Below, piece by piece: positions 29,892 to 57,612 of a stretch of 64,000 nucleotides of DNA. The notes under the pieces are model-generated. The model was not told the origin of the DNA, did no database searches, and was given only the letters and a program-made list of their open reading frames with translations. Made by a program: the position numbers and the translations under genes. How positions within the stretch are numbered: the stretch's first letter is position 1; each line of letters starts with the position of its first letter. Source of the DNA: Patescibacteria group bacterium (GTDB lineage Bacteria > Patescibacteriota > Patescibacteriia > UBA2591 > CALHIP01); the NCBI GenBank assembly GCA_026417895.1, contig JAOACJ010000016.1, forward strand, positions 20,015 through 84,014. Direction: 5' to 3'.

Positions 29892-29905
29892 AGAGATAGA
29901 GTATG

Positions 29906-30334
29906 CTAAGGGTCAAGGTTGTTTATCTTGTCTGGTTTAAATGATTTTATAATGAATAAAATTGTGCCCAGTAGAATCATTATATCAGAAAAATTGAAAC
30001 TAAAAACAGAGAAAAAGTTAAAGTAATCAATGACAAAACCGTAGAGAAGGCGATCCAAGAAATTACTCAAACCACCAATAAAAACAGAAGAAAGAAAATA
30101 AGAAAGATGGTATTTTTTATTTTTGAAACTTTTGATAAGCAAAAAAATGAGAAGAAAAAAAATCATCAAAACAAGAAAATAAAAAATATCTCCCTTGAAA
30201 AAAAAGAGAAAGTAAGGATTAGGGATTAATTTAAAAAATAAATATTCTTTTTTTATTAAAAGAATATTTTTAATCAAGCGTTCTAAAATAAAAAAAAGAA
30301 GAAAGAAAATAAGAAAATATTTTTCCTTTTTCAT
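29906..30334 (-). CDS. lspA: lipoprotein signal peptidase II
   Basis: GGLSNFLDRLLYGFVIDYF and FNFSDIMILLG match the LspA conserved boxes; four hydrophobic helices. Confidence 0.7.
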   Translation of the reverse strand: MKKEKYFLIFFLLFFILERLIKNILLIKKEYLFFKLIPNPYFLFFFKGDIFYFLVLMIFFLLIFLLIKSFKNKKYHLSYFLSSVFIGGLSNFLDRLLYGFVIDYFNFFSVFSFNFSDIMILLGTILFIIKSFKPDKINNLDP

Positions 30335-37181: not shown

Positions 37182-37988
37182 TTAATCTATTTTTATCTCT
37201 TGGTCAACCCTTTGAATAGAGGAGGCTTTTTTTGTCTTTGGATCAATGGCAAGAAATACAGCATTAATAATAGCTTCTCCTTTTTCCGGAATTTCAAAAT
37301 TCTGAGGGATCTGGCTCAAAAAGGCAGTTAAGACATTTTTTTTCTCAACACCGATGACGGAATTTTTTGCTCCAACCATCCCAATGTCTGATAAAAAAGC
37401 GGTGCCAGAAGATAAAATTTGAGCATCAATAGTGCCAATATGAGTATGAGTACCCAAAACAGCACTTGCCCGGCCATCAAGATAGTGTCCTAAAGCAACT
37501 TTTTCTGAGGTTGCTTCAGCGTGAAAGTCTACAATAATAGCATTTAAATTCTTGTTAGAAAATCGAGCCAAGATCTCGTCAGCCTTGCGAAAAGGACAGT
37601 CGGCTTCTATTTCCAAAAAAACTCTACCTAACAAGTTTATCACTAAAATAAAATTTTGACCAATTTTAATAATTTTTTCACCTGAACCGGGCGTCTCAGG
37701 TGGATAATTAGCTGGCCGAATAATTTTATCTTTCAAATCTTTGTCTTTAAAAATTTCAAAGATCTCTTTCTTTGACCAAATATGATTGCCGGAAGTAAAA
37801 AAATCAACACCGGCATTCTTTATTTCTTGTAAAGTCTTTCTAGTGACACCCAAACCATGGGCTAGATTTTCTACGTTTGCCAAAATTAAGTCCGGTTTAA
37901 ATTTTCTTTTCAATTTGGGCAAGATTCTAATCAGGGCTCGTCGACCAATTTTTCCAACAACATCACCAAAGAAAAGTACCTTAATCAT
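37182..37988 (-). CDS. ymdB: YmdB-family metallophosphoesterase (2',3'-cyclic-nucleotide phosphodiesterase-like)
   Basis: MIKVLFFGDVVGKIGRRAL…LILANVENLAHGLGVT…TSGNHIW metallophosphatase motifs; conserved rny-ymdB neighbourhood. Confidence 0.8.
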   Translation of the reverse strand: MIKVLFFGDVVGKIGRRALIRILPKLKRKFKPDLILANVENLAHGLGVTRKTLQEIKNAGVDFFTSGNHIWSKKEIFEIFKDKDLKDKIIRPANYPPETPGSGEKIIKIGQNFILVINLLGRVFLEIEADCPFRKADEILARFSNKNLNAIIVDFHAEATSEKVALGHYLDGRASAVLGTHTHIGTIDAQILSSGTAFLSDIGMVGAKNSVIGVEKKNVLTAFLSQIPQNFEIPEKGEAIINAVFLAIDPKTKKASSIQRVDQEIKID

Positions 37989-38061
37989 ATTAATATTTTA
38001 TCATTACAATATCACAAAATCAAACATTTTTGGATTCTATTTCTAGATTCTTCTTTCTAAT

Positions 38062-39591
38062 TTATCGGGCATATTCAGTAATTCTTGTCTCACGAATGAC
38101 GGTGACTTTAATTTCGCCGGGGTATTTAAGATCAGCTTCAATTTTTTTGGCTATTTCTTTGGCTAACCTTCCTGCTTCTAAATCATCAATTTTTTGAGCA
38201 TTGACAAAAATTCTTATTTCTCGACCAGCTTGAAGACAATAGGCTTTTTCTACGTTTGGAAAAGAAAGAGCAGTTTTTTCTAAATCTTCCAATCTTTTGA
38301 GATATTCTTCGTAAGAATCAGCCCGCGCTCCGGGCCTCGCCCCAGAAATAGCATCAGCCACTTTAACAATAATTGCTTCTAGGGTTGGTGGCGAATCTTC
38401 ATGATGGGTGGCAATGGGAATAATGACCTCTTCTGGCAAACCAAATTTCTCGCCTAATTTTTTACCAATTTCCGGATGGGTCCCGGTTGTTTCTTGATCT
38501 AAGGCTTTACCAATATCATGGAGTAATCCGGCCTTTTTTACAACTGATTCATCAAGACCAAGTTCAGAAGCAATTAAGACGCTAAGGTTAGCTACTTCAA
38601 CAGAATGTTGAAGAACGTTCTGACCATAACTCGTTCGGTATTTTAAGCGTCCTAAAATTTGCAGTAATTTCGGATCAAGACCAACCACGCCAACTTTAAA
38701 AGCTGTTTCTTCGCCAATCTCTTTTATTTCTTCAGCTAATTCTTTTTTAACTTCTTCAACAATCCTTTCAATTCTGGCTGGTTGAATGCGACCATCTAAA
38801 ATTAAACGTTCCAACGTTCTCTTGGCCAACTCTCTTCTCAAGGGTGAGAAACAGGAAATAGTAATAACTTCCGGTGTATCATCAATAATTATTTCCACTC
38901 CGGTCAATTGTTCTAAAGTTTTAATATTTCTCCCCTCTCGGCCAATAATTCGACCTTTCATTTCTTCGGAAGGTAGTCCAATAGTTGAAGTGGTTCTTTC
39001 TTGGGCGACGCTTGAAGCGTATCTTTCCATAGCTAGAACCAATAGCTCTTGACTTTTTTTCTCAATTTCTTTGGCCCCCTCTTTTTCCATTTTTCGGATT
39101 CGATTTAAAATTTCTTCCTGGAATTCTTTTTCTATCTGTGCAAAAAGCATTTCTTTCGCTTCTTTTTTCGAAAGCCCAGAAATTTTTTCTAGACGAAGAT
39201 TTGCCTCATCGTTTAAAGCCTGAACACGCTCCTTAATTTCTTCCACTTTTTTTACCTTTTCCGCTAATTTTATTTTCTCTTCCTCAAATTCAAGAAGCTT
39301 TTGATCAAATAGGGCCCTTCTTTTTTCTAGTTTTTCTTCAAGAATTTTAAGATCTTTTTTTCTTAATTGTTCTTCTTTTTTTACCCTTTCAATCATCGCT
39401 AGTTGCTCCTCTTTCGCCTCAAGAATAATTTCTTGGGCCCTTCTTCTGGCTTTCTCCTCAATCTCTCTGGCTTTTGTTTCTAGACTATCAAAAAGTCGAC
39501 TAACAACTGATTTCCTAAAATAGTAACCAATAACAGCTCCGATCAAAATGCTTGCCAAAACAATGATTGATGTAAAATTTTGACTCATCAT
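38062..39591 (-). CDS. rny: ribonuclease Y
   Basis: N-terminal TM, coiled coil, KH domain (RIIGREGRNIKTLEQLTGVEIIID), HD domain (LLHDIGKALDQETTGTHPEIG); 509 aa. Confidence 0.9.
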   Translation of the reverse strand: MMSQNFTSIIVLASILIGAVIGYYFRKSVVSRLFDSLETKAREIEEKARRRAQEIILEAKEEQLAMIERVKKEEQLRKKDLKILEEKLEKRRALFDQKLLEFEEEKIKLAEKVKKVEEIKERVQALNDEANLRLEKISGLSKKEAKEMLFAQIEKEFQEEILNRIRKMEKEGAKEIEKKSQELLVLAMERYASSVAQERTTSTIGLPSEEMKGRIIGREGRNIKTLEQLTGVEIIIDDTPEVITISCFSPLRRELAKRTLERLILDGRIQPARIERIVEEVKKELAEEIKEIGEETAFKVGVVGLDPKLLQILGRLKYRTSYGQNVLQHSVEVANLSVLIASELGLDESVVKKAGLLHDIGKALDQETTGTHPEIGKKLGEKFGLPEEVIIPIATHHEDSPPTLEAIIVKVADAISGARPGARADSYEEYLKRLEDLEKTALSFPNVEKAYCLQAGREIRIFVNAQKIDDLEAGRLAKEIAKKIEADLKYPGEIKVTVIRETRITEYAR

Positions 39592-39674: not shown

Positions 39675-40250
39675 TTATTTAATTATCTGGTCAATTAAAC
39701 CATATTTTTTTGCTTCCTCTGCATCCATAAAAAATTCTCGATCGGTGTCTTTCTCTATCTTCTCTAGGGGTTGACCGGTGTGAAAGGAGAGAATTTTATT
39801 AATTCTTTCCCTAATCTTTAAAATATGTTCAGCTCTTATTTTTATATCAAGAGCCGGCCCCTCAGCTCCACCCATCACCTGGTGAAGCATCACTTCTGAG
39901 TTTGGTAAAGCAAACCTTTTTCCTTTAGCGCCAGCTGCTAGCAAGACAGCAGCCATACTCCCAGCTAAACCAACACAAATAGTTGCCACGTCTGGTTTAA
40001 CATAGCGCATCGTATCATAAATAGCCATTCCGGCTGTAACACTGCCACCCGGACTGTTAATATAAAGTTTAATTTCTTTGTTTTTGTCTTCGCTTTCTAA
40101 AAATAAGAGTTGGGCAATAATAGTATTAGCCACATTATCGTCGATTACGTCGCCAAGAAAAATAATTCTTTCTTTTAAAAGCCGAGAATAAATATCATAG
40201 GCCCTTTCCCCGAATTGAGATTTCTCGATGACTGTTGGGACGAGGTACAT
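39675..40250 (-). CDS. clpP: ATP-dependent Clp protease proteolytic subunit
   Basis: [18 protein letters not shown] (catalytic Ser), …MLHQVMGG (His); 191 aa. Confidence 0.95.
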
Positions 40251-40682: not shown

Positions 40683-41813
40683 CTAAGCTTTAATCGGCAT
40701 AATCAGATAAAGAAAGTTTTCTTCAGGAAATGGTTTAATGACACTTGGTGAACTGTCGTCAATTATTTCAAAAGAAAATTCTGGCGTTGTGAAACTGGTT
40801 AGACCGTCTAAAAGATAGTGATAGTTAAAGGCCAAACTGTTTTTTTCACCAGAAACTTCACCTTTGACCTCAACCCTACTTTCTCCAACTTGATTGTTTA
40901 AAGAAGAGAGGATAATTGCTGATTTATTAGGAAGAAATTCAAAAGAAATATCATTGATACCGGTTTTGGAAAAGGGAGCAATCCCTTTGATAGTTTTAAT
41001 TAATAATTCTCTTTCTAGAATTGCTTTTGTTCTAAAATTTCTAGGAATAATTTCTTGATAGTTAGGAAATTCGGCTTGAATAATTCGAGAAATAAGTTTA
41101 GTTTCTTGAAAATAAAACAGAATTTGATTTTCAGAAAGAAAAATTTCTACTTCGTTTTCTTTCTTTTCAGCCGACGAATTAAAAATTCTTAAAAATTCTT
41201 GAAGGGTTTTGAGTGGAACAATGATTTTTTTAGACCTTTGGCTGGTTGTTGATTTTCCTAGAGTTATCTTTTTTTCTGCTAATCGATAACTGTCAGTTCC
41301 AACAATGGTTAAGGTTTGTGATTCAGGAGAAAAAGAAAATAAGAGGCCACTAATTTCTGGTCTGGTTTCTGACGGATTGCAAGAAGAGATGGTTTGCTGA
41401 ATTGATTTTTTTAAATCTTGCCCGGAAAGGAGGTATTTTTCTTCTTTTTCTATTTTAGGCAAAATTGGAAAATCTTCACTTGATAGTCCTTTTATTTTTG
41501 TTTCACCGTTTTTATATTTTAAAAAAAGTTCATCTTTAGTTACTTCAATTGTTACCGGCTCGTTAGGTAAAAAATTTACATGGGAAAAAAGCAAAGAAGC
41601 TGGAACAGTGAAAGAACCTTCTTTTTCTATTTTTCCACCAATAAAAGTTTCAATAGCTATTTCTAAATCTGTTGAAACAAGATAAAGTAACCCTTTTTCT
41701 ATTTTTAAAAGGACGTTGCCTAAAATTGGTAAAGACGATTTACTTATACTAGCTAGGTGAAAAACCTTTTCTAACCCTTTAATTAAATTTTTTTGTAAGA
41801 AAGTTCCTTTCAT
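40683..41813 (-). CDS. dnaN: DNA polymerase III beta sliding clamp
   Basis: N-terminal LPILGNVLLKIEKGLLYLVSTDLEIAIE pattern typical of DnaN domain 1; three-domain length 376 aa. Confidence 0.85.
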   Translation of the reverse strand: MKGTFLQKNLIKGLEKVFHLASISKSSLPILGNVLLKIEKGLLYLVSTDLEIAIETFIGGKIEKEGSFTVPASLLFSHVNFLPNEPVTIEVTKDELFLKYKNGETKIKGLSSEDFPILPKIEKEEKYLLSGQDLKKSIQQTISSCNPSETRPEISGLLFSFSPESQTLTIVGTDSYRLAEKKITLGKSTTSQRSKKIIVPLKTLQEFLRIFNSSAEKKENEVEIFLSENQILFYFQETKLISRIIQAEFPNYQEIIPRNFRTKAILERELLIKTIKGIAPFSKTGINDISFEFLPNKSAIILSSLNNQVGESRVEVKGEVSGEKNSLAFNYHYLLDGLTSFTTPEFSFEIIDDSSPSVIKPFPEENFLYLIMPIKA

Positions 41814-41947: not shown

Positions 41948-42868
41948 TTATTTTCCTGTTTTCTTGTTTTCTTTGTCAACACTTTCTTCACCTTCCTTAC
42001 CTCTTTCTAAAAAAAGAAAAACCCAACAACTTGTTTGATAAACATTTAAGAAACCAAGGGTAGTTATTTGGAAAACAAGAATTAAAAAAGCGAAAAAAAA
42101 CCAACTAAACCAGAATCCCGGCCAGCCCAAAAATTTTATTAAAAAAATACTCCCAAGTTTTAGAGGAAAAAAAAGAGCGCCCGAATCAAAGACTAACCAC
42201 CAAAGAAGACCGAAGCCGAACATAAACAAAAAGAGAATTATCATCAAAGATAATACTTTCAGCCAACTATTTTTTAGAAATAAAAAGAAAGAATAAAAAG
42301 CTTGTCGAAGAGAGTTTCTTTTAACAACAAAATAGAAAATAATATAAAAAATCAAAAGAGCTGAAACAAGACTAATAAGGAAAAAGAAAAAAATAATTAA
42401 GAAGAAAACCCACACTTGGACCGACAAAATTAAAAAATGAATACCAAACAAAAACAAAATAAACATCAAAAAACCGACCAAACAAACAATTGAGGTTGGC
42501 AAAAAGTTATTTTTTGCTCGTTGCCATGATTTTTTAAAATTAAACTTCTCTCCCTTTCCTATTTTACTAAGAGAAAAGATTAAAAAAATTTCTGAAAAAA
42601 TACATAAGGCTAAAAGAAAAATAAATATCGCTAATATTAAGATGGTCAGGGGGGTGTTTAAATTAAAAGCGGTGAGTGGTTTCTTAAAGACTACCTGAGG
42701 GTTGGTTGAAGAAAGAAAAACATCACCAATTAAAACCTCGGTTAAAAAAAACAAGAGAAAAAGAGGGTTGGTTAAAAAGAAGAAAAGAGAAGTCAGAAAC
42801 CCTAAAAACCAAAGCCCAAAGTTTTGCCAACTTATAGTTAAAGATTTTTTAAGAATTTCACCAATCAT
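41948..42868 (-). CDS. hypothetical polytopic membrane protein (Phe/Leu-rich)
   Basis: 306 aa, at least 7 hydrophobic helices, no motif recognised. Confidence 0.45.
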   Translation of the reverse strand: MIGEILKKSLTISWQNFGLWFLGFLTSLFFFLTNPLFLLFFLTEVLIGDVFLSSTNPQVVFKKPLTAFNLNTPLTILILAIFIFLLALCIFSEIFLIFSLSKIGKGEKFNFKKSWQRAKNNFLPTSIVCLVGFLMFILFLFGIHFLILSVQVWVFFLIIFFFFLISLVSALLIFYIIFYFVVKRNSLRQAFYSFFLFLKNSWLKVLSLMIILFLFMFGFGLLWWLVFDSGALFFPLKLGSIFLIKFLGWPGFWFSWFFFAFLILVFQITTLGFLNVYQTSCWVFLFLERGKEGEESVDKENKKTGK

Positions 42869-44739: not shown

Positions 44740-45825
44740 TTATTTTTGAGTAACTTCTTTGAGGCTTAAACCTAAACGATGATCTTCTGACTCTAAAGAA
44801 ATGATTTTAAAGGAGAAAATCTGGCCAACCTTAATCTTTTCTTTCATTATCTCTTCAGGAATTTCAGAAATATGAGCTAGGCCATAAATATCTTTTTCAA
44901 CCTCAACCAAAAATCCATAAGGTCTGATTTTAGAAATTTTTCCTTGAACAAGATCACCAACTTTATATTTTTTTTCAATCATTTTCCAAGGATTTTCTTG
45001 GGTTCTTTTTAGTGAAAGAGAAATTTTTGAATCATCAACAGAAAGAACTACGGCTTTAACTCGATCACCAACTTTGACTACCTCTTCTATTTTTTCTATT
45101 TTTTGCCAAGCAATTTCTGAAATATGGACCAAGCCTTTAATTTGATCATCTAACTCGACAAAAACACCAAAAGGAGAGATACCAACAACCCTTCCTTCAA
45201 CGATGTCACCAACTTTATATTTTTTAAACAAAGACGATTTTTTTTCTAATTCAACCTCTTTTTCCGAAAAAATAACTTTTTTATTCGTTTCATCACTACT
45301 AATTATTTTTACTTCTAAAGACTGACCGACGATTTCTTTTAATTTTTCTAAAATTTTATTTTTATCCCCATCAACGACTTGAGGAAAGTGTTGGCTAGAA
45401 AGTTGTGAAGAAGGGATAAAACCAGAGATTTTTTTATATTGAACAATTAATCCACCTCGATTGGCGTCGATTACCTTTACAGAAATAGTCCTTCCTTCTT
45501 CTTGGATTTTTTTAATCATTTCAGAAGTTTTTAATTTAGCCCCAGCCCGAAAAGAAAGTTCAACTTCTCCTCTTTCATTTTCTTCGTCAATAACTAAAGC
45601 TGTTGCCTCATCACCAACCTTTAAATTTAAATAGTCTCCCAATTCATCTTGAAGTTCAGCCCCTCGGACAACACCAGTAGCCAGACCTCCTAGATCAAGC
45701 CAGACCTCATTTTTTCCAATTTTCAAGACACGACCAGTCACCATTTGGCCAACTTCAAATTTTTTTATTTTCTTTAATAAGTTTTTCATAACCTTTAATT
45801 TATAAATAATAACATATTTTGACAA
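44740..45825 (-). CDS. rpsA: 30S ribosomal protein S1 (four S1 domains)
   Basis: Repeated G..V.G.V..I...G.FV.L…G..H.SEI S1-domain blocks; 361 aa. Confidence 0.8.
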   Translation of the reverse strand: MSKYVIIYKLKVMKNLLKKIKKFEVGQMVTGRVLKIGKNEVWLDLGGLATGVVRGAELQDELGDYLNLKVGDEATALVIDEENERGEVELSFRAGAKLKTSEMIKKIQEEGRTISVKVIDANRGGLIVQYKKISGFIPSSQLSSQHFPQVVDGDKNKILEKLKEIVGQSLEVKIISSDETNKKVIFSEKEVELEKKSSLFKKYKVGDIVEGRVVGISPFGVFVELDDQIKGLVHISEIAWQKIEKIEEVVKVGDRVKAVVLSVDDSKISLSLKRTQENPWKMIEKKYKVGDLVQGKISKIRPYGFLVEVEKDIYGLAHISEIPEEIMKEKIKVGQIFSFKIISLESEDHRLGLSLKEVTQK

Positions 45826-45847
45826 ATAAGTAAAGAAATGTTAAAAT
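45819..45847 (+). promoter_or_regulatory. sigma70-like promoter, TTGACA-17nt-TAAAAT, heading the long plus-strand gene block
   Basis: TTGACA at 45819-24, 17-nt spacer, TAAAAT at 45842-47; about 70 nt upstream of the 45920 start. Confidence 0.45.
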
Positions 45848-45868
45848 AATTTTTGGTTTCGATTTTCT

Positions 45869-45887
45869 GGTTCCTAATTTTGGAACC
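45869..45887. promoter_or_regulatory. perfect inverted repeat GGTTCC-n7-GGAACC downstream of the promoter (operator or 5'-UTR hairpin candidate)
   Basis: GGTTCCtaattttGGAACC seen directly, roughly +15 to +35 relative to the predicted TSS. Confidence 0.35.
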
Positions 45888-45919
45888 AATAACTAAAGAC
45901 TATTAACTATAAATTTATT

Positions 45920-46540
45920 ATGCAAATCATTTGGTACGGTGAAAGTTGTTTTAAAATTATAACTAACGAATTAAGTATTTTAACTGACCCCTTTTCGCCA
46001 GCTGCCCAGGGGTTGAAAAATCCTAGACTGACTTCAGAGATTGTTGTCTTCTCTAACCCTGCGACTTTAAAAAAGAAAGAGGAAGAAAAAAACAATTTTT
46101 TTCTCATTTCTATGCCTGGCGAATATGAAATAAAAAACATTTTTATTTTCAGCTTGCCCCACCAGGAAAATAATCTTTTAAAATTAATTTATAAAATAGA
46201 AACAGAGGAAATAAAAATTTGTTTTTGGGGAGAAATTTCGAAAGAGCCAGCCAGTGAAGAATTAGAAAAATTAGGAGAAGTGGATGTTCTTCTCATTTCC
46301 TTTGCCCCCTCGCTGTCTTTAAAAGAAATTGTCAAAACTATAAAAGAAATCCAACCAAAAATTGTTATTCCCCATTCTTTAAAGATTAAAGAAAATAAAA
46401 TAGATCTAAAAATCATTGAAAAATTTACTCAAGAAATGGGTTGGCGAAAATTTGAAAAGACTGCCAAACTGAAGATAAGAAAAAAAGACCTTTCCCTTGG
46501 AAAAACCGGCTTAATTATTCTTGAACCAGTGGTTAATTAA
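45920..46540 (+). CDS. MBL-fold metal-dependent hydrolase (UPF0173-like)
   Basis: N-terminal MQIIWYGESCFKIITNELSILTDPF and C-terminal …VVIPHS resemble the small metallo-beta-lactamase-fold hydrolases; 206 aa. Confidence 0.5.
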   Translation: MQIIWYGESCFKIITNELSILTDPFSPAAQGLKNPRLTSEIVVFSNPATLKKKEEEKNNFFLISMPGEYEIKNIFIFSLPHQENNLLKLIYKIETEEIKICFWGEISKEPASEELEKLGEVDVLLISFAPSLSLKEIVKTIKEIQPKIVIPHSLKIKENKIDLKIIEKFTQEMGWRKFEKTAKLKIRKKDLSLGKTGLIILEPVVN

Positions 46541-46878
46541 TGACTATGAATGATAAAATGAAAAAGAAAAACTTTCCTTGGCCCTTAGTTATTTTTGTTT
46601 TTATTATCATTGTTATTTTTTGGCAATTTTTCCTGAAAATTTTCCCTCAGTCAAAAAAAGAAGAAGATGATTTTATCAAAGACTTAGTTAATCAAGGAGT
46701 TTTCATCAAAGATAATTTTGACAAGCTATTATCTAATTTAAAAGAAATTAAATTTACCAATTCTTTATTAGAAAGAGAAGAAAATAAATTAACCAACAAA
46801 GAGATTGAGAGACTTAAAGAAAAAGTTTTACAATATACCAATCAAAAACTAATGACGAATAATCAACCCTTGGAATAA
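46540..46878 (+). CDS. hypothetical small membrane-anchored protein
   Basis: 112 aa, one N-terminal TM, coiled-coil tail. Confidence 0.35.
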
Positions 46879-49355: not shown

Positions 49356-50096
49356 TTGAAATTAATTTTTATGATTCAACTCTTTAATTTAATTCTTTAT
49401 CAACCGCTCTTAAATCTTTTGGTTTTTTTCTATAACACCATTGCCTTCCGGGATTTAGGGTTGGCCATTATTTTTTTAACCATTTTTTTAAAAATTATTT
49501 TATATCCCACCTCTCTGGCACAAATTAAAAATCAGAAATTACTTATTGAGCTTCAGCCAAAATTAAATGAAATTAAAAAAAAATTTAGTCATGACAGAAC
49601 AAAGATGGCTCAAGCAACAATAGAACTTTATCGCCACCACAAAATTAATCCCTTTTCCTCCTGTCTATCTTTAATGGTTCAATTGCCAATTTTAATTGCC
49701 GTCTACCAAGTTTTTCGAACCGGTATTTTATCTCAAGAACTTAATCTTTATCCATTTATTCATAATCCCGGACAACTTAATCCAATTGCTTTTGGTTTTA
49801 TTAATTTTGCTGAGAAAAATTTCCCCCTTGCTCTTTTAACCGGTATGGTTCAATTTTGGCAGAGCAAAATGCTTTCAAGAAAAAAACCACCGCCGGAGGT
49901 AAAAAAAGAAAAAGAAGCAAAAGATGAAAGTATGATGGCGATGATGAATAGACAGATGATGGTGATGATGCCTCTTTTTACCGTGATTATTGGTATGACC
50001 TTACCGAGTGGTTTAATTTTCTATTGGTTAATTAATTTAATTTTGACCATTGGCCAACAATTTTTCTTTTTTAAAAAACAAAAAATACTGATCTAA
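49356..50096 (+). CDS. yidC: membrane protein insertase YidC (short form)
   Basis: LGLAIIFLTIFLKIILYPTSLAQIKNQKLLIELQPKLNEIKKKF…MAQATIELYRHHKINPFSSCLSLMVQLPILIAVY matches the YidC/Oxa1 core; 246 aa. Confidence 0.8.
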   Translation: MKLIFMIQLFNLILYQPLLNLLVFFYNTIAFRDLGLAIIFLTIFLKIILYPTSLAQIKNQKLLIELQPKLNEIKKKFSHDRTKMAQATIELYRHHKINPFSSCLSLMVQLPILIAVYQVFRTGILSQELNLYPFIHNPGQLNPIAFGFINFAEKNFPLALLTGMVQFWQSKMLSRKKPPPEVKKEKEAKDESMMAMMNRQMMVMMPLFTVIIGMTLPSGLIFYWLINLILTIGQQFFFFKKQKILI

Positions 50097-50105
50097 TCTA
50101 AAAAT

Positions 50106-50498
50106 ATGAACCATCTTGTTTTTTTTAGAGTCTTGATTCTCGAACCCCTCTTTACTCTTTTTTATTTTCCTGTTTGGTGGTATTCTCAGGGCTTCGTGCT
50201 TGTTGTTAATTTTCTTAAAAAAAAGATTCAGATCACATGTCAAAATTTAGCCCTAAAAACTTTATTCTCTTTTCTTTTTAAACCGATGTACGGTGATTAT
50301 TCTCGGGAGGGTCGGTTGATTAGCTTTTTTATGAGACTTATTCACCTTTCTTTTCGTCTTTTTCAGCTGACTTTGTTGATTATCTTTTCTTTAATTTTTA
50401 TAATTTTTTATCTTTTTTTACCTCTCTTTACTGTTTATCAGGTGGTCTGTCATTTTGGCCATTTTTGTTATTATTTTCTTTGGCCGGAAATTATTTAG
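50106..50498 (+). CDS. hypothetical membrane protein
   Basis: 130 aa, 3-4 hydrophobic helices. Confidence 0.35.
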   Translation: MNHLVFFRVLILEPLFTLFYFPVWWYSQGFVLVVNFLKKKIQITCQNLALKTLFSFLFKPMYGDYSREGRLISFFMRLIHLSFRLFQLTLLIIFSLIFIIFYLFLPLFTVYQVVCHFGHFCYYFLWPEII

Positions 50499-50501
50499 TT
50501 T

Positions 50502-53168
50502 ATGATGGACGAATCACTTTTTTACCTTTGTCCCAGTTGCCAAGGCCAAGGCTATCAAGGGAAGAAAAAATGCCAAACTTGTTTTGGCCTTGGTGTTTGG
50601 CAGGTTTATTCAGATAAGAAATTGTTTTTTGACTGGGACCTTTCTTCTTCGGTTTTTATTGCCAAAAAAATAAAAAAGTTTTTTGGTATTTTAATCTATC
50701 TTTTTCTATTTTCCTTTGGCTTGATAGGATTTCTTTCGCTTCTCCAAGCGATTTTTTCTTTTAAAATTCCGTCTAATTTTTTACCTCTCTTTCAAAGAGA
50801 AAAATTCTTTCTCATGAAAATTTTTTGGCTTTCGCTTTTAACCGATCTTTTTTTAGTCTATTCTAAAATTCAAAGAAAACCATCTTTTCTTAGAATCTTT
50901 AAAGAAAAAAAGGAAAAAATTAATGTCGCCCATTATCTTTCAGCTGCTAGTGAAAGAGTCTTAACCGAGGCGATTATTTTGAGTCGAAAACTGTTCCATC
51001 AGCAAATCAATCCTGTTCATCTTTTTATTGGTCTTCTTCAAAGTGAGGTTGGTTTTACTGTTTTAGGCCGCCTTGGTTTAAACTGGACTAAATTAAAAGA
51101 AGCGATAGCAAAAATTTTAAGAGAGATTCCCCCTAATTACGAAAGAAGACCATCTTTATTGAATCCAGAAACTAAAAAAATAATTCTTCAAGCCTCGGTT
51201 TTAACTTTACAAAAAAGAAAGGATTTAATTTCTCCTTTAGCAATAATGCGAGCAATTACCGTCTTTGAAGGACCAATTAAAAAAATACTTGACGAAGATT
51301 TTGAGATTAGACCTCGGGAAATAGAAAATGTCTGTCTTTGGTTTGAAATTTATGAAGAAATTAAAAAGGATTGGCAGAGACTTAGTGAGGGAGCACGAAG
51401 ACGACCAAAGGGGCCAATGAATGTGGCTATGACAGCCGTCGCCACTCCCTTTTTAGATGCTTTTTCTTCCGACCTCACAGCTCTAGCTCGTCTCGGTTAT
51501 TTAGGTCCTTTTATGGATCGAGAAAAAGAAATAGAAGAGATTTTCCGTGTTTTAGAAACAGGTCAAGGTAATTTAGTTTTAGTTGGTCCGCCTGGGGTTG
51601 GCAAAACCGCCATCATTGAAGGTTTGGCTCGAAAAATGATTCAGAATGAAGTGCCAAAAATTCTCCAGGATAAAAGATTAGTTAGTCTTTCTTTAGGTCG
51701 ATTAGTGGCTGGCGCTTCAAGGCCAGGCGAAATTGAGGAAAGAATGCAAATCATTATCCAAGAAATTATAAGAGCGGGTAATATTATCCTTTTTATTAAA
51801 GATATTCATAATTTAATTGGCGTTAAGACAACCGAGGGAGAATTAGATGTTGCAGAAATCTTGGCTGAAGCTTTAGAAAAGAAATATTTTTTACTTTTAG
51901 CTACTTCGACTTTAGGAATCTATGAGCATTGCTTAGAATCGTCGACTTTGGGTCAGGTTTTGACCAAGATTAACATCCAAGAACCGGATAAAAATAGCGC
52001 CATTCTTATTTGTGAGGCAAAAGTCGCTGCCATTGAAGCAAAAAATAAAGTTTTTTTCTCTTATGGTGCTTTAGAGAAAGCCGTTGAATTAGCCGAACGT
52101 TATCTTTATGAAAAATTTTTACCCCAAAAAGCGATTGAACTTCTTGAAGAGGTAGCGGTTTTTGTCAGGCAAAGAAAAGGAGCAAGGGCCATTGTCTTAA
52201 AGGAAGATGTGGCAGAAATTGTCGCTCAAAAAACTGGTATTCCTTCAGAAAAAATTAGTCAAGAAGAAAAAGAAAAATTATTAATTCTAGAAGAAAAAAT
52301 TCATGAGAGAATTGTTAATCAAGAGGAAGCGGTTCATTTAGTCGCTTCAGCCATTCGTCGAGCGAGAACAGAATTAAGAGATCCGAAAAAGCCGATTGTT
52401 AACCTCTTATTTTTAGGACCAACCGGGGTTGGTAAAACCGAATTAGCCAAAACAGTGGCTGAGGTTTACTTCGGTAAAGAAGAAAAAATGATTCGTTTAG
52501 ATATGAGTGAATTTCAGACTAAAGAGTCTTTAGGTCGACTTATTGGCTGCCCAAGTGAACCAAGGGGAGTTTTAACCGAAGCTGTCCGTAGAGCACCCTT
52601 TTCTCTCTTACTTCTTGATGAAATTGAAAAAGCTCACCCTGATATTCTTAACCTTTTTTTACAAGTCATGGACGATGGTCGACTAACTGATTGGCAAGGG
52701 AAAACAATTAATTTTACTAATTTAATGATTATTGGAACCTCAAATGCCGGCACTGAATTTATTCAGGAAGCACTTCTGGCTGGTAAAACAATCGAAGAGA
52801 TTAAAGAAATCTTACTTAAAGAAAAACTTTCACCTTATTTTCGGCCAGAATTTCTAAACCGTTTTGATGCTGTTGTCATTTTTAAGCCATTAGGGAAAAA
52901 AGAACTTTTCGCTATTACTCAACTGATTCTTAAAAAGCTTAGCTCTCAGATTGAAAAAAAAGGTATTACTTTCCAAGCGACAGAAGAAGCAATCAACGAA
53001 TTAGTGGAGAAAGGCTTTGACCCAATTTTCGGTGCCCGTGCTCTAAAACGAACCATTCAAGAAGAAGTTAACAATGCTTTGGCTAATTTTCTTTTGACCG
53101 GCAAAATCTCCCGTGGCGATCTGGTAATTTTAGAAAAAGGTGGTAAAATAAAAATAGAGAGAAAGTAA
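50502..53168 (+). CDS. ClpC/ClpB-like two-ring AAA+ chaperone with N-terminal zinc-ribbon and transmembrane extension
   Basis: D1 Walker A GPPGVGKTAIIEGLARKM; D2 Walker A GPTGVGKTELAKTVA and Walker B LLLLDEIEKAHPD; Clp_N repeat region. The N-terminal CPSCQGQG…CQTCFG zinc ribbon is followed by two hydrophobic helices. Confidence 0.85.
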   Translation: MMDESLFYLCPSCQGQGYQGKKKCQTCFGLGVWQVYSDKKLFFDWDLSSSVFIAKKIKKFFGILIYLFLFSFGLIGFLSLLQAIFSFKIPSNFLPLFQREKFFLMKIFWLSLLTDLFLVYSKIQRKPSFLRIFKEKKEKINVAHYLSAASERVLTEAIILSRKLFHQQINPVHLFIGLLQSEVGFTVLGRLGLNWTKLKEAIAKILREIPPNYERRPSLLNPETKKIILQASVLTLQKRKDLISPLAIMRAITVFEGPIKKILDEDFEIRPREIENVCLWFEIYEEIKKDWQRLSEGARRRPKGPMNVAMTAVATPFLDAFSSDLTALARLGYLGPFMDREKEIEEIFRVLETGQGNLVLVGPPGVGKTAIIEGLARKMIQNEVPKILQDKRLVSLSLGRLVAGASRPGEIEERMQIIIQEIIRAGNIILFIKDIHNLIGVKTTEGELDVAEILAEALEKKYFLLLATSTLGIYEHCLESSTLGQVLTKINIQEPDKNSAILICEAKVAAIEAKNKVFFSYGALEKAVELAERYLYEKFLPQKAIELLEEVAVFVRQRKGARAIVLKEDVAEIVAQKTGIPSEKISQEEKEKLLILEEKIHERIVNQEEAVHLVASAIRRARTELRDPKKPIVNLLFLGPTGVGKTELAKTVAEVYFGKEEKMIRLDMSEFQTKESLGRLIGCPSEPRGVLTEAVRRAPFSLLLLDEIEKAHPDILNLFLQVMDDGRLTDWQGKTINFTNLMIIGTSNAGTEFIQEALLAGKTIEEIKEILLKEKLSPYFRPEFLNRFDAVVIFKPLGKKELFAITQLILKKLSSQIEKKGITFQATEEAINELVEKGFDPIFGARALKRTIQEEVNNALANFLLTGKISRGDLVILEKGGKIKIERK

Positions 53169-54048: not shown

Positions 54049-55434
54049 TTGGTTTTAAATTTTATGAAAATAGTTCGTATTCTAATTCTTGTTTTCATTA
54101 TTTTCTCTTTTCTTTTTGGTTGGGAATTAGGAGCTCAAATACCCGGTCAACCTCAACCTAGAAAGCCAATCTTGCCACCCGTTAATCTTTCTTGGTGGGT
54201 GGTCTGGGAACAACCGAGTGATTTTACTGACTTAATTAATACTTTCCGCACTCTCTATCCCTATGTTAATATTGAAGTCAAAAAATTTCGTTACGAAGAA
54301 TATCGTGAGGCTTTAATTGAGGCTTGGGCCCGGGACGTCGGACCAGATATTTTTTCTCTCCCCAATACCTGGCTTAGAGAATATCAGGAGTGGATTGTTC
54401 CGATGCCAGCCAAAGTTGCTTTAAAAAAAGAAATTCAAAGTGGTCCTTCTTGTGCTCGAAAAACAAAAATCATTACCGAAGAAAAACCCTTACTTACTCT
54501 TAAAGATTTAAAAGAAAAATTTGTGGGTCAGGTAGAAAAAGATGTTTTAATTCAGGGTCGAATTGCTGGTCTACCTCTTTCTTTTGATACCCTAGTTCTT
54601 TATTACAATCGTGATCTTTTAGATGCAGCTGGTATTCCTGAACCCCCAAAAACCTGGGAAGAGTTTATGGAGGCAGTGATTAAGACAACGTTGATAGATA
54701 AACAAAAAAATATTTTTCAAGCGGGTGCAGCTTTAGGGACAGCCAATAATATCGAAAGAGCAGTTGACCTTCTTTCTCTTTTGATGATGCAAAGTGGCAT
54801 CAATATGACCAATCCTCAGGGTTTGGTTACCTTTAATCAAGCCTGGCCAGACGATCCATCTTATTTTCCAGCCGAAGAAGCTTTGAGATTTTACACTGAT
54901 TTTGCTGATAAAAATAAAGAAGTTTATACTTGGCATAAAGAGATGCCCTCGAATTTAGAAATGTTTATCCAAGGGAAATTGGTTTTCTTTTTTGGTTATG
55001 CCTATCACTTACCTTTAATTAAAGCACAGGCCCCGAACCTGAATTTTGGCTTAACCAAAATGCCCCAGAGAAGTGGAACGCTTAAAGAAATAAACTTTGC
55101 TCATTATCCAGTTCAAGTCGTCTCCCGAAAAAGCAAAAATATAGAAATGGCATGGTTTTTTCTGAATTGGGCAAGCCAGAACCCAACTCCTTATTTAAAT
55201 CGCGCCAAAAAGCCAACCGCCCTACGAAGTTTGATTGCCATCCAATTGCAGGATCCAGATTTAGAAGTTTTTGCTTCACAGGCTTTAACAGCTTCCTCTT
55301 GGTATCAAGGGAAAAACCCACTTTTGGTGGAAGAAGCTTTTAAGGAAATGATTGATGATATCAACGAAGGCAGAAAGTCTTATCTAGAGGCAATCAATTT
55401 CGCTGTCCAAAAAATTAATCAACAAATAAAATGA
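54049..55434 (+). CDS. extracellular solute-binding protein (ABC-type, family 1-like), orphan
   Basis: Signal/anchor N-terminus, about 460 aa, with blocks resembling sugar-binding SBPs (…TWEEFMEAV…). No permease or ATPase genes are adjacent. Confidence 0.5.
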   Translation: MVLNFMKIVRILILVFIIFSFLFGWELGAQIPGQPQPRKPILPPVNLSWWVVWEQPSDFTDLINTFRTLYPYVNIEVKKFRYEEYREALIEAWARDVGPDIFSLPNTWLREYQEWIVPMPAKVALKKEIQSGPSCARKTKIITEEKPLLTLKDLKEKFVGQVEKDVLIQGRIAGLPLSFDTLVLYYNRDLLDAAGIPEPPKTWEEFMEAVIKTTLIDKQKNIFQAGAALGTANNIERAVDLLSLLMMQSGINMTNPQGLVTFNQAWPDDPSYFPAEEALRFYTDFADKNKEVYTWHKEMPSNLEMFIQGKLVFFFGYAYHLPLIKAQAPNLNFGLTKMPQRSGTLKEINFAHYPVQVVSRKSKNIEMAWFFLNWASQNPTPYLNRAKKPTALRSLIAIQLQDPDLEVFASQALTASSWYQGKNPLLVEEAFKEMIDDINEGRKSYLEAINFAVQKINQQIK

Positions 55435-56297
55435 AATTTTTTAATTTTCACATTCACCAAAATAGCCAAAGTTTCATTTTCAAAATCTTTTTTCTCTTTT
55501 CTCTTCTTTCTCTTTTCCTGTCTATTTTTTCGCCGGTTTTGGCAGAAAACACCACCTCCTCAACTTCAATGGTCACTGTTTATACGTGTGATACAAGCGG
55601 TTGTCGTCCTGGAGGATTGATGAAGGCCGTCTCTCTAAAATGTGCTTGTTGTGGCGATTGTGATTTAAACGATATTCTTAAAATCGTTGTGGGAATCTCT
55701 CGTCTGATTCTTCGTTGGGTTGGTGTTTTGGCTCTTATCTTTTTTATTATTGGTGGTATAATCTGGTTGACCTCCAGTGGTAATCCAGAACAGGTAAAAA
55801 GAGGGAAACAAATCTTGGTTGGTACTCTTATCGGTCTTTGTATTGTTTTTTTTGCCTGGCAAATTGTTAATATCATTATTTGCGGACTCTCTCAAGGTAA
55901 ACTTGAAGAATCTTGCACCCTCTTTAATCGGAAATGGTATGTCTTTCCGGGCGAAAAAGAAAAAAAATGTCAGATGGAAGAAAGACCAAATGCAGCTTGT
56001 TTTACCAACTGGCCTGAATGTCCATCTTTTGCGGCGATGGGTCCCAATCCCATTTGGAATTCAGATTGTAAGAAAGAGGAGGTAAAGACCATCCAGCAAA
56101 AATTAGCTCAACTTTGTTGTTACGGTACAGGTGTAGCAACTATTGATGGTTGTTTTGGCCCGGAAACAAGAAATGCAGTCAAATTATTCTGTCAAAAGAA
56201 TAGTGGTTGTGGGACTGGTAATGATCAAGGTTATGTTGATCAAACGACCTATAATTTAATTACCACCGGCACTGACCTTCAACTATGTCAAGAATAA
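55431..56297 (+). CDS. VirB2/TrbC-like pilin-family protein fused to a Cys-rich region and a C-terminal peptidoglycan-binding (PG_binding_1-like) domain
   Basis: Signal peptide …SPVLAENTT. Pilin core ILKIVVGISRLILRWVGVLALIFFIIGGIIWLTSSGNPEQVKRGKQILVGTLIGLCIVFFAWQIV. C-terminal VKTIQQKLAQLCCYGTGVATIDGCFGPETRNAVKLFCQ matches the PG_binding_1 pattern. Confidence 0.6.
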   Translation: MKFFNFHIHQNSQSFIFKIFFLFSLLSLFLSIFSPVLAENTTSSTSMVTVYTCDTSGCRPGGLMKAVSLKCACCGDCDLNDILKIVVGISRLILRWVGVLALIFFIIGGIIWLTSSGNPEQVKRGKQILVGTLIGLCIVFFAWQIVNIIICGLSQGKLEESCTLFNRKWYVFPGEKEKKCQMEERPNAACFTNWPECPSFAAMGPNPIWNSDCKKEEVKTIQQKLAQLCCYGTGVATIDGCFGPETRNAVKLFCQKNSGCGTGNDQGYVDQTTYNLITTGTDLQLCQE

Positions 56298-56301
56298 ATA
56301 T

Positions 56302-56658
56302 ATGTCATTCTTTTATAAAAATTTTCTTCTTCTTGCTACTTTCTACTTTCTATTTTCTAGTTTTATTTTGCCGGTTTTAGCTGAAGAAACAACCGAACTC
56401 CCTAATCCCCTTGGCACCGGCATGACCACGGAAAAAATTGTTGCCAATGTCATTAAACTGATTTTAGGTTTAGTTGGTGTGTTGGCTTTGATTATGTTTA
56501 TTTACGGTGGTATTACTTGGATGACTTCGGGTGGCAATGTTGAAGCGGTTAAAAGAGGAAAAAATACTTTAGTTTGGGCGGTTTTAGGTTTAGCTGTTGT
56601 TTTCTTTGCCTACAGTTTGGTCAATTTTATTTTAACCAAAGTGCTTGGCGTAAGGTAA
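56302..56658 (+). CDS. VirB2/TrbC-like pilin-family protein (paralog 2)
   Basis: Signal peptide …LPVLAEETT; core VIKLILGLVGVLALIMFIYGGITWMTSGGNVEAVKRGKNTLVWAVLGLAVVFFAYSLV; 118 aa. Confidence 0.6.
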   Translation: MSFFYKNFLLLATFYFLFSSFILPVLAEETTELPNPLGTGMTTEKIVANVIKLILGLVGVLALIMFIYGGITWMTSGGNVEAVKRGKNTLVWAVLGLAVVFFAYSLVNFILTKVLGVR

Positions 56659-56693
56659 AAACTTTTTAAAATAGACTGTGGATAAATCTTTCT

Positions 56694-56720
56694 TGACTTT
56701 TTCGTTTTTGGAAGTAAAAT
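56694..56720 (+). promoter_or_regulatory. possible promoter inside the pilin array (TTGACT-15nt-TAAAAT; spacer short)
   Basis: TTGACT at 56694-99 and TAAAAT at 56715-20; strong RBS GGAGGG before the paralog-3 start. Confidence 0.3.
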
Positions 56721-56755
56721 AAAACCATCACCATTCTTTTAAAGGTCGTCATTAA

Positions 56756-56778
56756 CTAGACACAAACCTTGTGTTTAG
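56756..56778. promoter_or_regulatory. imperfect inverted repeat CTAGACACAA-acc-TTGTGTTTAG between candidate promoter and RBS of pilin paralog 3
   Basis: Seen directly; 10-nt arms with 1 mismatch. Confidence 0.3.
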
Positions 56779-56806
56779 TTCGGAGGGAAAATAAAATTGG
56801 AAAAAT

Positions 56807-57172
56807 ATGAGAAAAATTCTTTTCACTTTATCAACCTTAACTTTACTGGCTTTACCGGGCGTCACCTTTGCTCAAGTCAATGAATGGTTGAATAACATGG
56901 CTTTACAGAACATTCTGCCGACCAATGTTGATCTACCAGGTCTTGTTTTCAGCATTATTCGCTACATTCTTGGTTTCTTAGGGGTGGTGGCCGTTGTTGT
57001 CATTATTATTGGTGGTTTTATGTGGATGACAGCGGCTGGTAATGAAGAAAAGGTGGCTAAAGCCAAAAAGGTTTTAGTTCAAGGTTTGATTGGTTTAGTC
57101 ATTGTTATGTTAGCCTTTGCCATCGCCACCTTTGTCATGAGTATGATTCGAACCAGCACAGCTGGGGCCTAA
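56807..57172 (+). CDS. VirB2/TrbC-like pilin-family protein (paralog 3)
   Basis: Signal peptide …VTFAQVNE; core IIRYILGFLGVVAVVVIIIGGFMWMTAAGNEEKVAKAKKVLVQGLIGLVIVMLAFAIA; 121 aa. Confidence 0.6.
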   Translation: MRKILFTLSTLTLLALPGVTFAQVNEWLNNMALQNILPTNVDLPGLVFSIIRYILGFLGVVAVVVIIIGGFMWMTAAGNEEKVAKAKKVLVQGLIGLVIVMLAFAIATFVMSMIRTSTAGA

Positions 57173-57216
57173 TCTAATTTTTTTAGGGAAGAGAAATTAT
57201 TTTTTAAATTTCTTTT

Positions 57217-57612
57217 ATGAAAAAAGGAAATTTCTTTTGCCCTTCCTTTATTTTTCTTTTTCTCTTATTTCTTTTCCTTTCATTTCAATTTTCTCTTGCC
57301 CAAGTTGACCCTCAAGTTTTGGAGGGTGAAAATTATTTAGATGAATTAGGCCAAGGAACAGATGTTTTAGAAAAAAGAGATTTAATTCTCCTTATTTTCT
57401 CGATTGTGCGCTATCTACTTGGTCTGATTGGTGTCGCGGCTGTCATAGTTATTATTTCGGCTGGTTATTCTTGGATGACAGCGGCTGGTAACGAGGAAAA
57501 AGTGAAAAAAGCCAAAGCTGTTTTACAAAATGGTATCATTGGTTTGGTCGTTATTATGATTGCCTATGCCTTGACGATTTTTGTTTTTAAACTCATTCGC
57601 GGCGAATTATAA
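57217..57612 (+). CDS. VirB2/TrbC-like pilin-family protein (paralog 4)
   Basis: Signal peptide …FSLAQVDPQ; core IVRYLLGLIGVAAVIVIISAGYSWMTAAGNEEKVKKAKAVLQNGIIGLVVIMIAYALT; 131 aa. Confidence 0.6.
   Translation: MKKGNFFCPSFIFLFLLFLFLSFQFSLAQVDPQVLEGENYLDELGQGTDVLEKRDLILLIFSIVRYLLGLIGVAAVIVIISAGYSWMTAAGNEEKVKKAKAVLQNGIIGLVVIMIAYALTIFVFKLIRGEL

Follow-up and report, generated by a model that had tools for sequence, protein, structure and literature searches.

A predicted membrane-anchored Hsp100-family ATPase of Patescibacteria with a degenerate D1 ring and a conserved upstream gene for a small membrane protein

ClpC and ClpE, the partners of ClpP in Firmicutes and Actinobacteria, consist of a Clp_N domain and two AAA+ rings (D1 and D2). 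ClpC carries in its D1-small domain a short M-domain coiled coil that is the docking site of MecA, while ClpE starts with a Cys4 zinc finger. An ATPase sharing the Clp_N domain and both rings, and also starting with a putative Cys4 site, is encoded in a 64,000-nucleotide stretch of DNA from a Patescibacteria group bacterium (GCA_026417895.1, contig JAOACJ010000016.1, positions 20,015 to 84,014), hereafter called the window, by the open reading frame (ORF) 50502..53168 (+). The protein of 888 amino acids (aa), deposited at NCBI as MCX7779205.1, "AAA family ATPase [Patescibacteria group bacterium]", finds its best sequence and structure matches among ClpC and ClpE. However, unlike these enzymes it lacks the M-domain, and with it the MecA docking site, the (A/V)GF loop, the pore tyrosines and, by prediction, an active D1, and it has a predicted transmembrane (TM) hairpin, a DnaJ-type CxxCxGxG motif and a dedicated membrane partner gene, here named orf130.

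Other described systems resemble the ATPase in part. Its D2 is most similar to that of ClpB/Hsp104, with which the region of the docking loop aligns ungapped, but the ATPase differs from ClpB/Hsp104 in its predicted membrane anchor and inactive D1, in the absence of an M-domain coiled coil and in the loss of both pore tyrosines. With ClpA it shares a collinear N-D1-D2 arrangement without an M-domain, with aa 149-877 aligned in one piece to positions 4-732 of the 734 of the ClpA hidden Markov model (HMM); unlike ClpA, it has no IGL loop for ClpP, its D1 appears dead, and a TM hairpin and a zinc knuckle are present. Two N-terminal TM helices anchoring an AAA+ ring with the entry face to the membrane are also characteristic of FtsH. 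However, in FtsH a single classic-AAA ring is fused to an M41 protease, and the periplasmic domain is sizeable, whereas the ATPase combines two rings of the Hsp100 type with a predicted outside loop of about 15 aa and carries no protease domain. Torsins, which have no arginine (Arg) finger of their own and work with the membrane cofactors LAP1 and LULL1, are likewise membrane-associated AAA+ proteins of the Clp-D2 lineage without aromatic pore loops and with a small TM cofactor, a role that orf130 may play here. They are eukaryotic, single-ring proteins of the lumen of the endoplasmic reticulum, whereas the ATPase described here is bacterial, predicted to be cytoplasmic, has two rings and keeps the D2 Arg finger. 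Finally, the plant protein FIP (At5g02160), a membrane-anchored zinc finger with two CXXCXGXG repeats and no J-domain, binds the membrane AAA+ enzyme FtsH5 and thus sets a precedent for such a combination (PMC5915565). FIP and FtsH5 are separate proteins, one of them a protease, while in the ATPase the zinc finger is fused to the enzyme, and the homology is limited to the motif.

The architecture is demonstrated by the alignments and models presented below, and from it we infer a function. The ATPase would be a Patescibacteria-specific class I member of the Hsp100/Clp family, anchored in the membrane and acting independently of ClpP as a remodelling machine together with orf130; we regard the case for this reading as evenly poised.

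Among 5.8 billion proteins searched, at least 120 homologues were recovered. They measure 870-930 aa, share 43-77% identity with the ATPase over 99-100% of its length, and their informative names are all patescibacterial. The residue counts given below were taken from a 120-sequence alignment of full-length homologues. A scan with an alignment of the N-terminal part revealed the module in 333 species-representative genomes, and neighbourhood counts are based on the 80 loci returned out of these, which include Buchanan-, Kuenen-, Uhr-, Falkow- and Komeilibacteria as well as Parcubacteria. Such wide conservation places the features of the ATPase far beyond chance. Many TPA_asm records that contain the Patescibacteria-specific module (loci L003, L005-L007, L009 and others) are titled "uncultured Gammaproteobacteria bacterium"; these titles are probably placeholders or wrong taxonomic labels.

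Pfam recognises in the ATPase the domains Clp_N, AAA (D1), AAA_lid_9, AAA_2 (D2; E = 1.7e-51) and ClpB_D2-small. The Clp_N match, at aa 160-206, scores 27.6 bits against a cutoff of 20.7; the AlphaFold2 (AF2) model places eight helices within aa 148-300, and HMMER aligns this N-domain weakly with the N-domain repeats of ClpC. The scores against NCBIfam subfamily models are far under the curated cutoffs: 582.9 against 1232.1 bits for ClpB (TIGR03346), whose model aligns in two stretches and skips the M-domain, and 509.1 against 993.15 bits for ClpA (TIGR02639), with ClpK, ClpG and ClpV also far below. Therefore, the ATPase belongs to the Hsp100 superfamily but to none of its curated subfamilies. 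In the PDB, the best sequence match found by HMMER is ClpC of S. aureus (E = 1e-143, 483 bits), and matches to ClpC and ClpB lie at E about 1e-140; the HMMER alignments used 6em8 for S. aureus ClpC and 1qvr for T. thermophilus ClpB as references. With 120 homologues as input, AF2 gave a confident model (pLDDT 87.4, pTM 0.77), whose AAA+ core Foldseek matches to ClpC and ClpB with a target-normalised TM-score of about 0.8. No Peptidase_M41 domain was found in the ATPase by Pfam, so that a protease domain of the FtsH type is missing. The strings quoted in a first-pass annotation of this DNA, namely CPSCQGQG, CQTCFGLG, the two hydrophobic helices, ILFIKDIH and LLLLDEIE, all occur in the ORF at the expected residues.

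The N-terminus contains two cysteine motifs, CPSCQGQG (aa 10-17) and CQTCFGLG (aa 24-31), separated by a spacer of six residues (YQGKKK) and not twelve, as had been stated. The four cysteines are invariant in alignment A2 and are kept in 111-112 of the 120 homologues, the remainder being N-terminally truncated; 107 of them show the CxxC...CxxC pattern, and 75 the strict CxxCxGxG form in both motifs. The top Pfam match of aa 1-50 is DnaJ_CXXCXGXG (PF00684; E = 8e-5), with 23.3 bits, which is below the gathering cutoff of 32.7. Short beta hairpins are modelled at aa 7-9, 32-36 and 39-42. The suggestion of a Cys4 site thus stands as a putative one, but in view of the best Pfam match its type is closer to a DnaJ-type CxxCxGxG knuckle than to the generic zinc ribbon first proposed, and it is better described as a single predicted zinc centre of the DnaJ-CR type.

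Two hydrophobic segments follow, FFGILIYLFLFSFGLIGFLSLL (aa 60-81) and FFLMKIFWLSLLTDLFLVY (aa 102-120). Throughout the family, the core of the first lies at about aa 67-87 and includes a conserved FGxxG, while the second, spanning about aa 104-120, has the conserved residues F108, W109, S111, D115 and Y120. The loop between them (aa 88-103) is short, variable and almost uncharged, with about 15 aa predicted outside, while the N-terminal flank of TM helix 1 and the C-terminal flank of TM helix 2 are strongly K/R-rich in the whole family. According to the positive-inside rule, the K/R-rich outer flanks suggest a hairpin with both ends inside, which would place the zinc knuckle and the AAA+ rings in the cytoplasm with the N-terminal face of the ring at the membrane. 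The analysis thus shows a predicted N-in/C-in TM hairpin that would tether the N-terminal, substrate-entry face of the ring to the cytoplasmic side of the membrane. The conserved segments, their flanks, the short outside loop and the AF2 helices bear out the membrane tethering put forward in the first-pass annotation. A downstream start at one of the in-frame codons TTG41, TTG74, ATG105 or TTG160, which would remove this region, is ruled out by the family-wide conservation of the N-terminus: the cysteines and both hydrophobic segments are conserved over orthologues of 43-77% identity, and no later start is credible. When 1.84 billion representatives were searched exhaustively by HMMER with aa 1-140 alone, 50 matches emerged, all N-terminal, the shorter ones being collinear fragments of the same architecture; the module was not found in this search as a standalone protein or on other domains, and is fused to this ATPase only.

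Residue-level alignments indicate that D1 is degenerate. Its Walker B sequence ILFIKDIH falls exactly on ILFIDELH of ClpC and ClpB in the HMMER alignments, with D replaced by K and E by D in an unshifted register, so that the substitution noticed in the first pass is real; these alignments also rule out a displaced DE pair elsewhere in D1. The position of the catalytic Glu is occupied by D or N in 108 of the 120 homologues and by E in three, and the pairs found include KD (45), PN (19), DN (13) and DE (1). The Arg-finger pair RR is lost as well (LGQVLTKI against LERRFQPV), being replaced family-wide by [EQN][VAI]. The pore loop, AGASRPGEIEER against AGTKYRGEFEER in ClpC, has no tyrosine, since the sequence AGASRPGE presents SRPG where ClpC reads KYRG, and none of the 120 homologues has an aromatic residue in this loop. 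The P-loop and sensor-1 are retained, the Walker A sequence being GPPGVGKT with its Lys kept in 112 of 120. D1 is thus predicted to be unable to hydrolyse ATP by the standard mechanism. The family-wide losses, together with the intact catalytic residues of D2, agree with the regulatory or inactive D1 proposed earlier.

D2 appears catalytically complete. Its Walker B is LLLLDEIE (aa 702-709), and Walker A, Walker B, sensor-1 (N748), the Arg finger (R787) and the sensor-2 motif GAR846 are present in 120/120 homologues; the D2 alignment scores 329.9 bits to ClpB and 300.2 bits to ClpC. However, a gap of five residues relative to both enzymes removes GYVG from its pore loop (GCPS-----EPRGVLTE against GAPPGYVGHDDGGQLTE). 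The loop is short, rich in Gly and acidic residues and without any conserved residue, and 101 of the 120 homologues have no aromatic in it. Only about 12 divergent members keep a loop of ClpB length, PPGY[AG]G, which places the loss of the D2 pore loop within the family. The term unfoldase, used in the first-pass annotation, is therefore doubtful in its canonical sense, the aromatic paddle being absent from both rings.

The elements that connect ClpC with its partners are also missing. The docking loop (A/V)GF of ClpC (AGFGGSSDG) lies opposite a 7-residue gap in the ATPase, facing FGGSSDG, while the same region aligns without a gap to ClpB, and the N748-E783 segment, where a ClpP loop would sit, is 36 aa long in 120/120, as in ClpB. 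Thus, no ClpP-docking loop was found in the ATPase or the 120 aligned members by the ClpC and ClpB alignments or by segment length. No M-domain was found in the alignments with ClpC, ClpB and ClpA, nor does the AF2 model contain a coiled-coil insertion. In the ClpC alignment, D1 stops at ClpC residue 426 and D2 restarts at residue 464 with overlapping query ranges; this overlap and the single collinear stretch with ClpA indicate that the domain is absent.

The gene orf130, which was overlooked in the first-pass annotation, is the strictly conserved upstream partner of the ATPase gene. It was found directly upstream in 77 of the 80 loci by each of three methods, tBLASTn, unbiased ORF clustering and a profile HMM; two of the three loci without it are truncated contigs, giving 77 of 78 assessable loci. 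The spacing between the two genes is mostly -8 to +10 nt and amounts to 3 nt here. The sole assessable exception, L068:2285-2488, has no upstream orf130 of at least 70 aa and a gap of about 200 nt. This gap may contain a divergent or very short copy of the gene; alternatively, orf130 may be truly lost there. In a profile search, orf130 proteins of 108-145 aa fell into at least 891 clusters, every one annotated as hypothetical; the named ones all belong to Patescibacteria, and none has a Pfam domain. The protein encoded in the window likewise has no Pfam match even at E <= 10 and no NCBIfam or PADLOC match, and a fold search in the PDB gave nothing significant (best E = 2.2). It comprises a conserved N-terminal half and one long C-terminal hydrophobic helix, modelled by AF2 as a helical hairpin (pLDDT 82), and includes the invariant motifs FPxWWY..G and PM[YF]G..GRxISFFxR and a juxtamembrane ladder of arginines (R70, R77 and R84). 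These traits suggest a small membrane protein whose conserved half faces the cytoplasm, and the synteny points to a probable role as an obligate adaptor or cofactor of the ATPase at the membrane. Close relatives (alignment A3) share a C-terminal tail with two cysteines, C-x5-6-C-x-YFL (aa 113-130; 50442-50498), which is absent from more distant orthologues; this tail is probably extracytoplasmic and may be a disulphide or metal site.

No conserved neighbour besides orf130 emerged from clustering of all ORFs at the 80 loci. Genes for L21 (34 loci), a glycosyltransferase (28), YidC (23), RnpA (19) and YidD (18) occur nearby, YidC being found upstream in closer relatives only. The core-gene context rnpA-yidD-yidC with L21 is not a defence island, and PADLOC matched no specific defence model to the ATPase, giving only generic similarity of D2 (DolB, 115 bits). 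This result and the housekeeping gene context speak against a role as a defence system.

In the mechanism proposed here, D1 with its ATP-binding P-loop would form a nucleotide-stabilised assembly ring, and D2 would be the sole motor. ATP-stabilised assembly rings are represented by the D2 ring of NSF and the D1 ring of Pex1/Pex6. The product of orf130 would act as a membrane adaptor or cofactor, while the zinc knuckle might capture unfolded or membrane-proximal segments of clients in the manner of J-less DnaJ-like zinc-finger proteins. J-less CXXCXGXG proteins, FIP among them, have been proposed to bind unfolded segments (PMC5915565). ATP turnover in D2 could then remodel or dislodge membrane-associated clients. 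Because this clade lacks the aromatics of both pore loops, short-range and non-processive pulling or remodelling would be favoured over the processive threading of ClpB and ClpC.

Several observations weigh against this membrane-anchored remodelling machine. With the aromatics gone from both pore loops, pulling by any mechanism is uncertain, and the members with PPGY[AG]G suggest that threading was the ancestral function and that function may vary by clade. The Pfam score of the zinc finger is under the gathering threshold (23.3 against 32.7 bits), and a physical interaction of the ATPase with orf130 is inferred from synteny alone.

The main rival explanation is a non-threading, Torsin-like switch. 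Here no polypeptide would ever be engaged by the pore, and nucleotide cycling of D2 would drive a membrane complex with orf130 to assemble and disassemble, or to signal through its conformation. The short D2 loop without a conserved residue, the lack of aromatics in both pore loops of this clade, the membrane anchor and the obligate-looking small membrane partner are all consistent with such a switch. However, the D2 Arg finger and sensor residues are conserved in 120/120, unlike in Torsin, the Clp_N domain and a zinc knuckle of the substrate type are retained, and some members keep a canonical Tyr loop. A switch of this kind is rather unlikely, though it deserves to be kept in view. A related proposal, which may be advanced only tentatively, is that the ATPase and orf130 form a two-component membrane AAA+ machine, restricted to one large patescibacterial branch, that has abandoned aromatic threading and ClpP coupling. 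It would be a bacterial double-ring equivalent of Torsin and other non-threading enzymes that depend on a cofactor, with a role in membrane-protein biogenesis or quality control near YidC.

Processive extraction of membrane proteins, as by Msp1/ATAD1 or the AAA module of FtsH, possibly with transfer of faulty proteins to the FtsH of this genome (42919-44733), would agree with an N-terminal anchor that turns the entry face towards the membrane, with a D2 that is a complete motor, with the adjoining yidC in 23/80 loci and with the presence of ftsH in the window. To our knowledge, no threading AAA+ enzyme that has been characterised lacks pore-loop aromatics altogether; here 101 of 120 members have none in either ring. 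The adjacency of yidC is not general, and no link to FtsH was found; the FtsH pathway had been suggested in the first pass, but nothing connects the ATPase specifically with it. Such an extractase is thus improbable.

Delivery of substrates to ClpP by a conventional unfoldase of the ClpC/ClpE type, as envisaged in the first-pass annotation, is not borne out: ClpC is the top PDB match (483 bits), ClpE too has an N-terminal zinc finger, homologues are named "ClpC" in several databases and a clpP gene is confirmed 10 kb away (39675-40250, -), but the 7-residue gap at the docking loop with ClpB spacing in 120/120, the absent M-domain and pore tyrosines, and the location of clpP on the opposite strand in an unrelated neighbourhood make this reading very hard to sustain. 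A membrane-tethered disaggregase of the ClpB type cooperating with DnaK would fit the ClpB-like D2 and the lack of a ClpP loop, but is equally far-fetched with no M-domain coiled coil, which mediates DnaK coupling in ClpB, a D1 that appears dead, no tyrosine in either pore loop and an NCBIfam score of 583 against a cutoff of 1232.

Table 1. Positions in the window of the ATPase gene, its predicted domains and the adjacent upstream genes
Feature	Position	Strand	Evidence
YidC insertase (context, not core)	49356..50096	+	Pfam 60KD_IMP, E = 3.9e-45
orf130, small membrane protein, 130 aa, NCBI MCX7779204.1 (hypothetical)	50106..50498	+	Synteny, profile, AF2
Hsp100-family ATPase, zinc finger-two TM helices-Clp_N-D1 (predicted dead)-D2 (predicted active)	50502..53168	+	ORF, Pfam/NCBIfam domains, PDB alignments, AF2, Foldseek
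Predicted DnaJ-CR-type zinc knuckle, two CxxCxGxG motifs, aa 10-31	50529..50594	+	Cys conservation, sub-threshold Pfam match
Predicted TM helix 1, aa ~60-87	50679..50762	+	Kyte-Doolittle 2.51; AF2 helix 49-85
Predicted TM helix 2, aa ~102-121	50805..50864	+	Kyte-Doolittle 1.76; AF2 helix 101-124
Clp_N-type N-domain, aa ~140-300, eight helices	50919..51401	+	Pfam, AF2
D1 AAA+ ring, aa ~312-560, Walker A intact, catalytically degenerate by prediction	51435..52181	+	Alignments
Degenerate D1 Walker B ILFIKDIH, aa 429-436	51786..51809	+	Residue-level alignment
D2 AAA+ ring and D2-small domain, aa ~600-888, ClpB-like	52299..53165	+	Pfam, alignments
D2 pore loop 1 remnant GCPSEPRG, aa 682-689, GYVG deleted	52545..52568	+	ClpC/ClpB alignments

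Neither a second Clp ATPase nor ClpX was found in the 64-kb window, in which the other P-loop ORFs encode a YifB/ComM-like protein, RecA and FtsH. The first of these is a Mg-chelatase-like AAA+ ATPase of the YifB/ComM type (28359-29912, -); apart from the ATPase described here, it and FtsH are the only multi-domain AAA+ proteins of the window. A gene for a YmdB-like phosphoesterase adjoins that for RNase Y, with recA alongside (37182-39591, -), and the pairing of RNase Y and YmdB is Firmicutes-like. Downstream of the ATPase gene, four consecutive small ORFs (55431-57612, +) encode T4SS_pilin or TrbC-VirB2-like domains, the first of them (55431-56297) also containing a peptidoglycan-binding domain. 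All ORFs of at least 90 aa lie on the minus strand from 36 kb to a strand switch at about 45825-45920, and on the plus strand from there to about 58 kb. The cumulative GC skew reaches its minimum at about 46 kb, and dnaN is located at 40683-41813; the strand-switch region may be the region of the replication origin, but DnaA boxes are not enriched near it. Two ORFs of this part of the window have no Pfam match, one of 306 aa (41948-42868, -) between dnaN and ftsH and one of 112 aa (46540-46878, +) upstream of gyrA.

The fold and the superfamily of the ATPase are known; what is new is the combination of an anchor, a zinc knuckle, a D1 predicted to be dead, a D2 without the aromatic paddle, the lack of a ClpP loop and a partner. 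The open-access literature searched yielded no account of orf130 or of an Hsp100 with a membrane anchor and a zinc knuckle, and the anchor, the predicted pseudo-ATPase D1, the absence of aromatic pore loops and of a ClpP loop, and the unannotated partner are not described together for an Hsp100. Database entries that call these proteins "ClpC" or "ATP-dependent Clp protease ATP-binding subunit" probably mislead. The occurrence of the family in hundreds of species of Patescibacteria provides a natural experiment on an Hsp100 ring without the canonical grip, and orf130, with its at least 891 hypothetical clusters, represents a concrete target for the discovery of function in a phylum of highly reduced proteostasis and envelope biology.

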